Of a DNA stretch of 41,208 nucleotides, positions 6,045 through 6,144 are shown one piece after another. How positions within the stretch are numbered: position 1 is the first letter of the stretch; each line of letters begins with the position of its first letter. This DNA is from Teseptimavirus T7. Under the pieces are notes generated by a model, which was not told the DNA's origin, made no database searches, and saw nothing but the letters and a program-made list of their open reading frames with translations. The position numbers were made by a program, and so were the translations under genes. The stretch lies in the sequence record PP384397; one strand, given 5' to 3'.

Positions 6045-6065
6045 GAGATCTCGATCCCGCGAAAT

Positions 6066-6088
6066 TAATACGACTCACTATAGGGAGA
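6066..6088 (+). promoter_or_regulatory. T7 RNAP class III consensus promoter (vector-derived phi10 copy, no lac operator)
   Basis: taatacgactcactatagggaga followed by gene-10 leader ccacaacggtttccctctagcaataattttgtttaactttaagaaggagatatacc. Confidence 0.93.
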
Positions 6089-6119
6089 CCACAACGGTTT
6101 CCCTCTAGCAATAATTTTG

Positions 6120-6144
6120 TTTAACTTTAAGAAGGAGATATACC
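6120..6144 (+). promoter_or_regulatory. Gene-10 translational leader and RBS (aaggag) with NcoI site at the start codon
   Basis: tttaactttaagaaggagatatacc directly upstream of ATG 6145; ccatgg spans the ATG. Confidence 0.85.

Follow-up and report, generated by a model that had tools for sequence, protein, structure and literature searches.

Direct repeats of gene 10 control elements in a T7 genome matching the published reporter phage T7_mC-g1-o

Introduction

Vectors of the pET type derive their promoter, leader and terminator elements from T7 gene 10. The closest described system in which such elements meet the phage genome again is the PHEIGES collection of engineered T7 phages (Levrier et al., Nat Commun 2024, PMC10933291). 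In the passages available from that paper, the genomes are assembled in vitro by exonuclease III chew-back and annealing of PCR fragments, followed by cell-free expression. One of the constructs, T7_mC-g1-o, is listed as sequence record PP384397 (Supplementary Data 6); the mCherry insertion is placed at 5843 (Supplementary Data 3) and plasmid T7p14-mCherry is given as the PCR template for the cassette (supplement). The same passages report that each of the three T7-mCherry phages gave fluorescence on lysis, and also report sequence confirmation. A sibling record, PP384395, is entitled 'Mutant Teseptimavirus T7 clone recombinant T7_mCg17o' and carries the annotations 'T7 promoter added for mCherry cassette' and an mCherry coding sequence.

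We have analysed the full 41,208 nucleotides of PP384397, hereafter the window. Comparison with the published design indicates, at a probability that we put at about 97%, that the window is the engineered reporter phage T7_mC-g1-o and that its most conspicuous internal repeat is man-made, arising from a cassette that reuses T7 gene 10 parts. The features discussed are collected in Table 1.

Table 1. Features of the inserted cassette and of the native gene 10 locus in the window
Feature	Position	Strand	Basis
φ1.1A (native class II promoter), left stump, cut by the insertion	5830..5844	+	window against V01146; primer gp1-oho1-as match 5825-5904
oho1, synthetic 'orthogonal' assembly linker, 60 nt	5845..5904	+	5' tails of primers oho1-mcherry-s and gp1-oho1-as
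plasmid backbone from the PCR template, pBR322 tet(C)-derived stretch, BglII at 6046	5905..6059	+	sequence matches
reporter φ10 promoter (-23) to gene 10 5' leader (+61)	6060..6143	+	repeat, consensus, hairpin, Shine-Dalgarno, sibling annotation
within the reporter copy: promoter core; +1; stem-loop; AAGGAG	6066-6088; G6083; 6083-6103; 6132-6137	+	consensus match, folding
mCherry CDS, 236 aa and stop	6145..6855	+	ORF list; cassette 100% identical to annotated mCherry cassette in PP384395
untranslated vector remnant: XhoI, His6 codons 6883 (unused), polylinker to BamHI 6944	6856..6950	+	
reporter Tφ terminator region	6951..7055	+	family D5; 105/105 identical to 25377-25481; hairpin 7015-7050, then T-run
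oho2, synthetic assembly linker, 60 nt	7056..7115	+	tails of primers gp1-oho2-s and oho2-mcherry-as
φ1.1A right stump (ATAGAGGGACAAAC); native T7 resumes	7116..7129	+	window against V01146
native φ10 promoter and gene 10 leader	24152..24235	+	core 24158-24180, +1 24175, XbaI 24196, Shine-Dalgarno 24224
gene 10A, major capsid protein	24238..25275	+	mapped from V01146 annotation; 10B frameshift extension to 25433
native Tφ terminator region	25377..25481	+	partner of 6951-7055; Tφ annotated at V01146 24210 = window 25481

The repeated promoter and leader

The first-pass annotation of this sequence had described an 84-bp direct repeat of the φ10 promoter and leader, lying about 18 kb from the native copy, and its coordinates and single C/A difference were reproduced. 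Positions 6060-6143 and 24152-24235 agree at 83 of 84 bases (repeat finder, family D6, 84 nt, 99%; script), the sole mismatch being C6109 against A24201 (script). The two copies are in direct orientation with a spacing of 18,092 bp, and since the bases just outside both ends differ, the ungapped match cannot be extended beyond 84 nt. The self-alignment that had been proposed as a check recovers the pair in BLAST with E = 7e-37. In 30 random sequences with the length and dinucleotide transitions of the window, the longest exact repeats reach only 13-18 nt, and the match is far above chance. Within the window it ranks third in length among the repeats, behind the 160-bp terminal repeat that is native to T7 and a repeat of 105 bp described below.

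The assignment of the two copies also stands. The copy at 24152-24235 maps onto the annotated φ10 promoter and gene 10 leader of V01146, where the φ10 +1 at 22904 corresponds to window position 24175. Relative to this +1 of the φ10 transcription unit, the native copy runs from -23 to +61, with 2 nt between its end and the start codon of 10A. That the copy at 6060-6143 belongs to the reporter is borne out by the promoter annotation of the sibling records. The 23-nt class III consensus TAATACGACTCACTATAGGGAGA (-17 to +6) is matched without a mismatch in both cores, and folding predicts the same 8-bp 5' hairpin (+1 to +21) in both leaders. The Shine-Dalgarno motif AAGGAG begins at 6132 for the ATG at 6145 and at 24224 for the ATG at 24238; that of mCherry sits 7 nt ahead of its start codon.

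The single difference turns TCTAGA into TCTAGC and so destroys the XbaI site in the cassette copy (script), as the first-pass annotation had noticed; the native copy keeps TCTAGA at 24196. In the cassettes of all three sibling genomes (PP384393, PP384395 and PP384396) the sequence is again TCTAGC, while every native copy there reads TCTAGA. Only three phage records in the collection match the TCTAGC window copy at 99% identity or better; among the matches listed there are two, both from PHEIGES. Other T7 records carry TCTAGA. Since TCTAGC recurs in three independent sibling constructs whose native copies are unchanged, C6109 was probably inherited from the template plasmid rather than acquired by mutation in the phage.

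A second repeat at the terminator

The earlier reading was right on the identity of the repeat, reasonable in what it expected of recombination, and incomplete in three respects: it did not recognize the documented design, it had no way of knowing about an apparent Tφ collapse in a sibling construct, and it overlooked a second repeat. Positions 6951-7055 are identical to 25377-25481 at 105 of 105 bases, again in direct orientation, 18,426 bp apart (family D5; script). The native 105-nt region terminates where Tφ is annotated. For each copy folding predicts the same hairpin of 15 bp, with a U-run behind it and z scores of -3.25 to -3.83 (-25.1 kcal/mol and z = -3.25 for the reporter copy). Tφ was flagged by this folding analysis and not by a simple generic terminator scan.

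Gene 10A sits between the native promoter-leader copy and the native Tφ copy. Because of the 84-nt and 105-nt repeats, mCherry and gene 10 are thus bracketed alike, with promoter and leader upstream and terminator downstream. The 105-bp Tφ repeat would add a second route to deletion and a two-sided route to gene conversion.

Origin of the cassette

The junctions bear directly on the origin of the cassette. The four primers published for the g1 construct (PMC10933291, supplement) each have one match in the window, gp1-oho1-as at 5825-5904, oho1-mcherry-s at 5845-5923, oho2-mcherry-as at 7036-7115 and gp1-oho2-s at 7056-7135, and they fall exactly on both cassette junctions. At the insertion site the V01146 reference reads CAATACGACTCAC, then T, then ATAGAGGGACAAAC; the cassette is flanked by reference positions 5843 and 5845, with T5844 missing. 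The whole 1271-bp cassette (5845-7115) is 100% identical to that in PP384395 (megablast of 5700-7300 against phage records), and PP384393 and PP384396 have the same mCherry cassette as well. Upstream of the promoter, 5905-6044 shows 100% identity to the tet(C) regions of plasmids and the whole of 5905-6059 matches small pET-like plasmids.

The remainder of the genome agrees with this origin, and no observation speaks against it. Apart from the cassette, only three differences separate the window from V01146, namely an additional A at 1896, A22629G and the loss of T5844. The second of these, G23900 in the window, gives gp9 N227S. It is a polymorphism of the laboratory stock of the PHEIGES authors, because their variant table shows A22629G in every phage, with a 'Y' marked for every sample (PMC10933291, supplement). 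The extra A at 1896, in the gene 0.6 region, accounts for the length of 39,938 bp of other T7 records such as AY264774.

We can therefore outline how the repeats would have come about. The plasmid T7p14-mCherry appears to borrow its gene 10 parts, namely the φ10 class III promoter, the 5' leader with its stem-loop and strong ribosome-binding site, and the Tφ terminator. The cassette from this plasmid would have been joined between gene 1 and gene 1.1 of the authors' wild-type T7 stock and the genome rebooted in a cell-free extract after exonuclease III annealing. Parts derived from gene 10 and put back into T7 therefore form two direct repeats with the native locus, one of 84 bp and one of 105 bp. 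The 84-nt repeat is an ordinary by-product of design in a published construct set and is, in that sense, already known.

Consequences at the insertion site

In the reporter unit T7 RNA polymerase would initiate at G6083, the gene 10 leader would be expected to drive high translation of mCherry, and the inserted Tφ copy would halt most transcripts. The fluorescence reported on lysis supports transcription from this site indirectly. The His6 stretch at 6883 and the polylinker lie 3' of the mCherry stop codon and represent vector carry-over that would be transcribed and not translated.

The site chosen for the insertion lies in a native promoter. The +1 of φ1.1A is annotated at V01146 5848, and the cassette splits this promoter between -5 and -3, with one T (reference 5844) dropped. 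Judged from the sequence, φ1.1A is destroyed. The neighbouring φ1.1B is intact in the window, with its +1 at 7194. A terminator hairpin now stands between gene 1 and genes 1.1-1.3 (from 7278), inside the early transcription unit. A polar effect of the inserted terminator on genes 1.1-1.3 is possible. Assembly titres were lowest for the g1 construct among the three loci, 5e6 against 6e7 and 2e8 PFU/ml with large SDs (PMC10933291, supplement).

Related constructs

The three sibling genomes resemble the window in having the same TCTAGC promoter-leader copy and the same mCherry, and differ from it in the spacing of the repeats. The copies flank gene 10A at about 1.3 kb in PP384393 and PP384396 and lie about 13.6 kb apart in PP384395 (T7_mC-g17-o), compared with 18.1 kb in the window. 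For PP384396 (T7_compile) the primers were non-orthogonal, and the shared stretch is only 78 nt. Identities of 99.9% among the sibling matches reflect alignment of the native φ10 copy and not converted cassettes.

PP384393 (T7_mC-g10-o) departs from its own design. When the design junction was rebuilt and compared, the record proved to be the primer-predicted sequence with exactly 202 bp taken out. In that design two Tφ copies stand in tandem, and 202 bp is the distance from the start of one to the start of the next, made up of one Tφ plus spacer. The oho1 linker is present; oho2 is missing and there is a single Tφ copy (PP384393.1 21382-26716, around locus 3731-3835). It is thus unlike the window, from which neither a Tφ copy nor the oho2 linker has been lost. 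The 202-bp loss looks like a repeat collapse between the two tandem 105-bp Tφ copies. As the genomes were sequenced with nanopore long reads (PMC10933291), a short-read collapse artefact is unlikely, and the collapse could have arisen during exonuclease III annealing, in the extract or during phage growth. A text search for recombination gave no hits in the supplements of PMC10933291 and two in the main text; the main-text passages available concern other methods, and the collapse goes unmentioned in the material available from that paper. The BLAST comparison of the rebuilt design with PP384393 also contains one single-base gap within the last ~200 nt compared (window 26300-26500, gene 12 region).

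Recombination between the repeats

The engineered repeats would be latent substrates for the recombination system of T7 itself. Simple arithmetic gives the products of a single exchange. Between the promoter copies 18,092 bp would be deleted, leaving 23,116 bp (58% of wild type); between the terminator copies 18,426 bp would be deleted, leaving 22,782 bp. Such genomes of about 23 kb, at 57-58% of wild-type length, would lack genes 1.1 to 9 or 1.1 to 10, among them DNA-replication and structural genes; the promoter-copy deletion would take genes 2.5, 3, 4, 5, 6, 8 and 9 among others. The first-pass annotation supposed that a deletion of about 18 kb should be selected against. This is sound, because a T7 knockout map (PMC11482910) rates genes from the deleted stretch as essential, and single-exchange genomes would presumably be non-viable on their own.

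A different outcome might follow from a double exchange or gene conversion, which could put the 1141-bp gene 10 segment in place of the 807-bp mCherry segment. The product would be a non-fluorescent genome of 41,542 bp, or 104% of wild type, in which the capsid gene is present twice, and it might be viable. Passages available from PMC10933291 cite a limit of <2 kb for new gene insertion, and a genome of this length might on that account be packageable. The two repeats could then be regarded as a built-in, two-sided exchange cassette by which gene conversion between sister genomes replaces mCherry with a second gene 10, and the ~23-kb genomes, which retain both ends, as potential defective interfering genomes. 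We hold this idea only tentatively and think it unlikely. If true, it would, together with the Tφ loss in PP384393, represent a predictable mode of instability for reporter phages built from pET-type parts.

Whether the repeat pair is in fact active, yielding deletions, defective genomes and reporter-loss variants often enough to affect stocks, is a related question, to which we are inclined to answer no while allowing it a real chance. T7 forms concatemers by way of its 160-bp terminal repeat, and the engineered repeats are of a similar order of length. PP384393 has lost exactly one Tφ unit with its spacer, although at a repeat pair other than the one considered here, and the titre of the g1 construct is low. 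Against this, the window is exactly as designed and at full designed length, with both 84-nt copies and the C/A marker intact; no exchange across that marker is visible, C6109 and A24201 being unconverted in the window and in all three siblings. At the genome level no recombination between the copies 18 kb apart is visible in the window. Single-exchange products, short of essential genes, cannot propagate alone, and the reported frequencies of phage homologous recombination are low, 1e-4 to 1e-8 (PMC12664982). The low titre, moreover, could be more simply explained by the disrupted φ1.1A or by the terminator placed before genes 1.1-1.3.

Alternative origins

Two further explanations concern the existence of the repeat itself, and to each we assign a negligible chance. 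One is that the record is a chimeric contig, in which reads of T7 and of a contaminating pET-type plasmid were joined through the shared φ10 and Tφ sequences. Shared sequences of 84 and 105 bp are of the kind at which assemblers make false joins, and pET-like plasmids do contaminate assemblies and have been filed under unrelated organisms. The joins, however, are at 5844/5845 and 7115/7116, as the primers dictate, and not at the repeats. They are marked by 60-nt synthetic linkers found in no plasmid, and sibling genomes carry the same cassette at two further sites, both designed. The fluorescence and the sequence confirmation reported in the passages available from PMC10933291 also speak against an artefact. 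The structure of the junctions rules out a chimeric assembly.

The other, that a wild T7-like phage copied its φ10 promoter and leader to a second site, can appeal to the recurrence of T7 promoters about 17 times per genome with repeated cores of 23-30 nt. Natural promoter copies, however, have only ~23-42 nt in common, against 84 nt with a complete leader in the present pair. The upstream copy is surrounded by pBR322 tet(C), synthetic primer tails, mCherry and a His-tag polylinker, and its TCTAGC version leads to the PHEIGES records already mentioned. The published primer matches at the junctions rule natural duplication out.

Comparison with known systems

Being part of the design of a synthetic phage already published, the repeat that drew attention to this locus carries little biological weight. 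The only new item is the apparent Tφ collapse in PP384393, apparently unreported as far as the available text of the paper goes, and it is of practical interest to phage engineers. For them the point is that φ10 and Tφ parts reused in T7 make repeats of ~100 bp with the capsid locus, which is essential, and that choosing a promoter, leader and terminator without homology to the phage would remove this liability.

When set beside the published T7_mC-g1-o design, the window is alike in insertion site, both junctions, both linkers, cassette content and the stock SNP, and no difference was detected in the comparison with that design and with the sibling records.

With cassettes of the pET/pIVEX type the window shares the φ10 promoter, the gene 10 translation initiation region and Tφ, in the same order, together with the pBR322 tet-derived sequence and BglII site upstream and an NcoI site at the start codon. 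It differs from them in that the lac operator is absent, in the change of TCTAGA to TCTAGC that removes XbaI and, above all, in its setting, as the cassette lies in the phage genome itself and hence repeats a native locus.

T7 has direct repeats of its own with which the engineered pairs can be compared. The promoter cores form one such class, at ~23 nt. The 160-bp terminal redundancy has the same direct orientation and a comparable length; the native terminal repeat, however, serves replication and packaging, whereas the engineered repeats are internal and have no such role.
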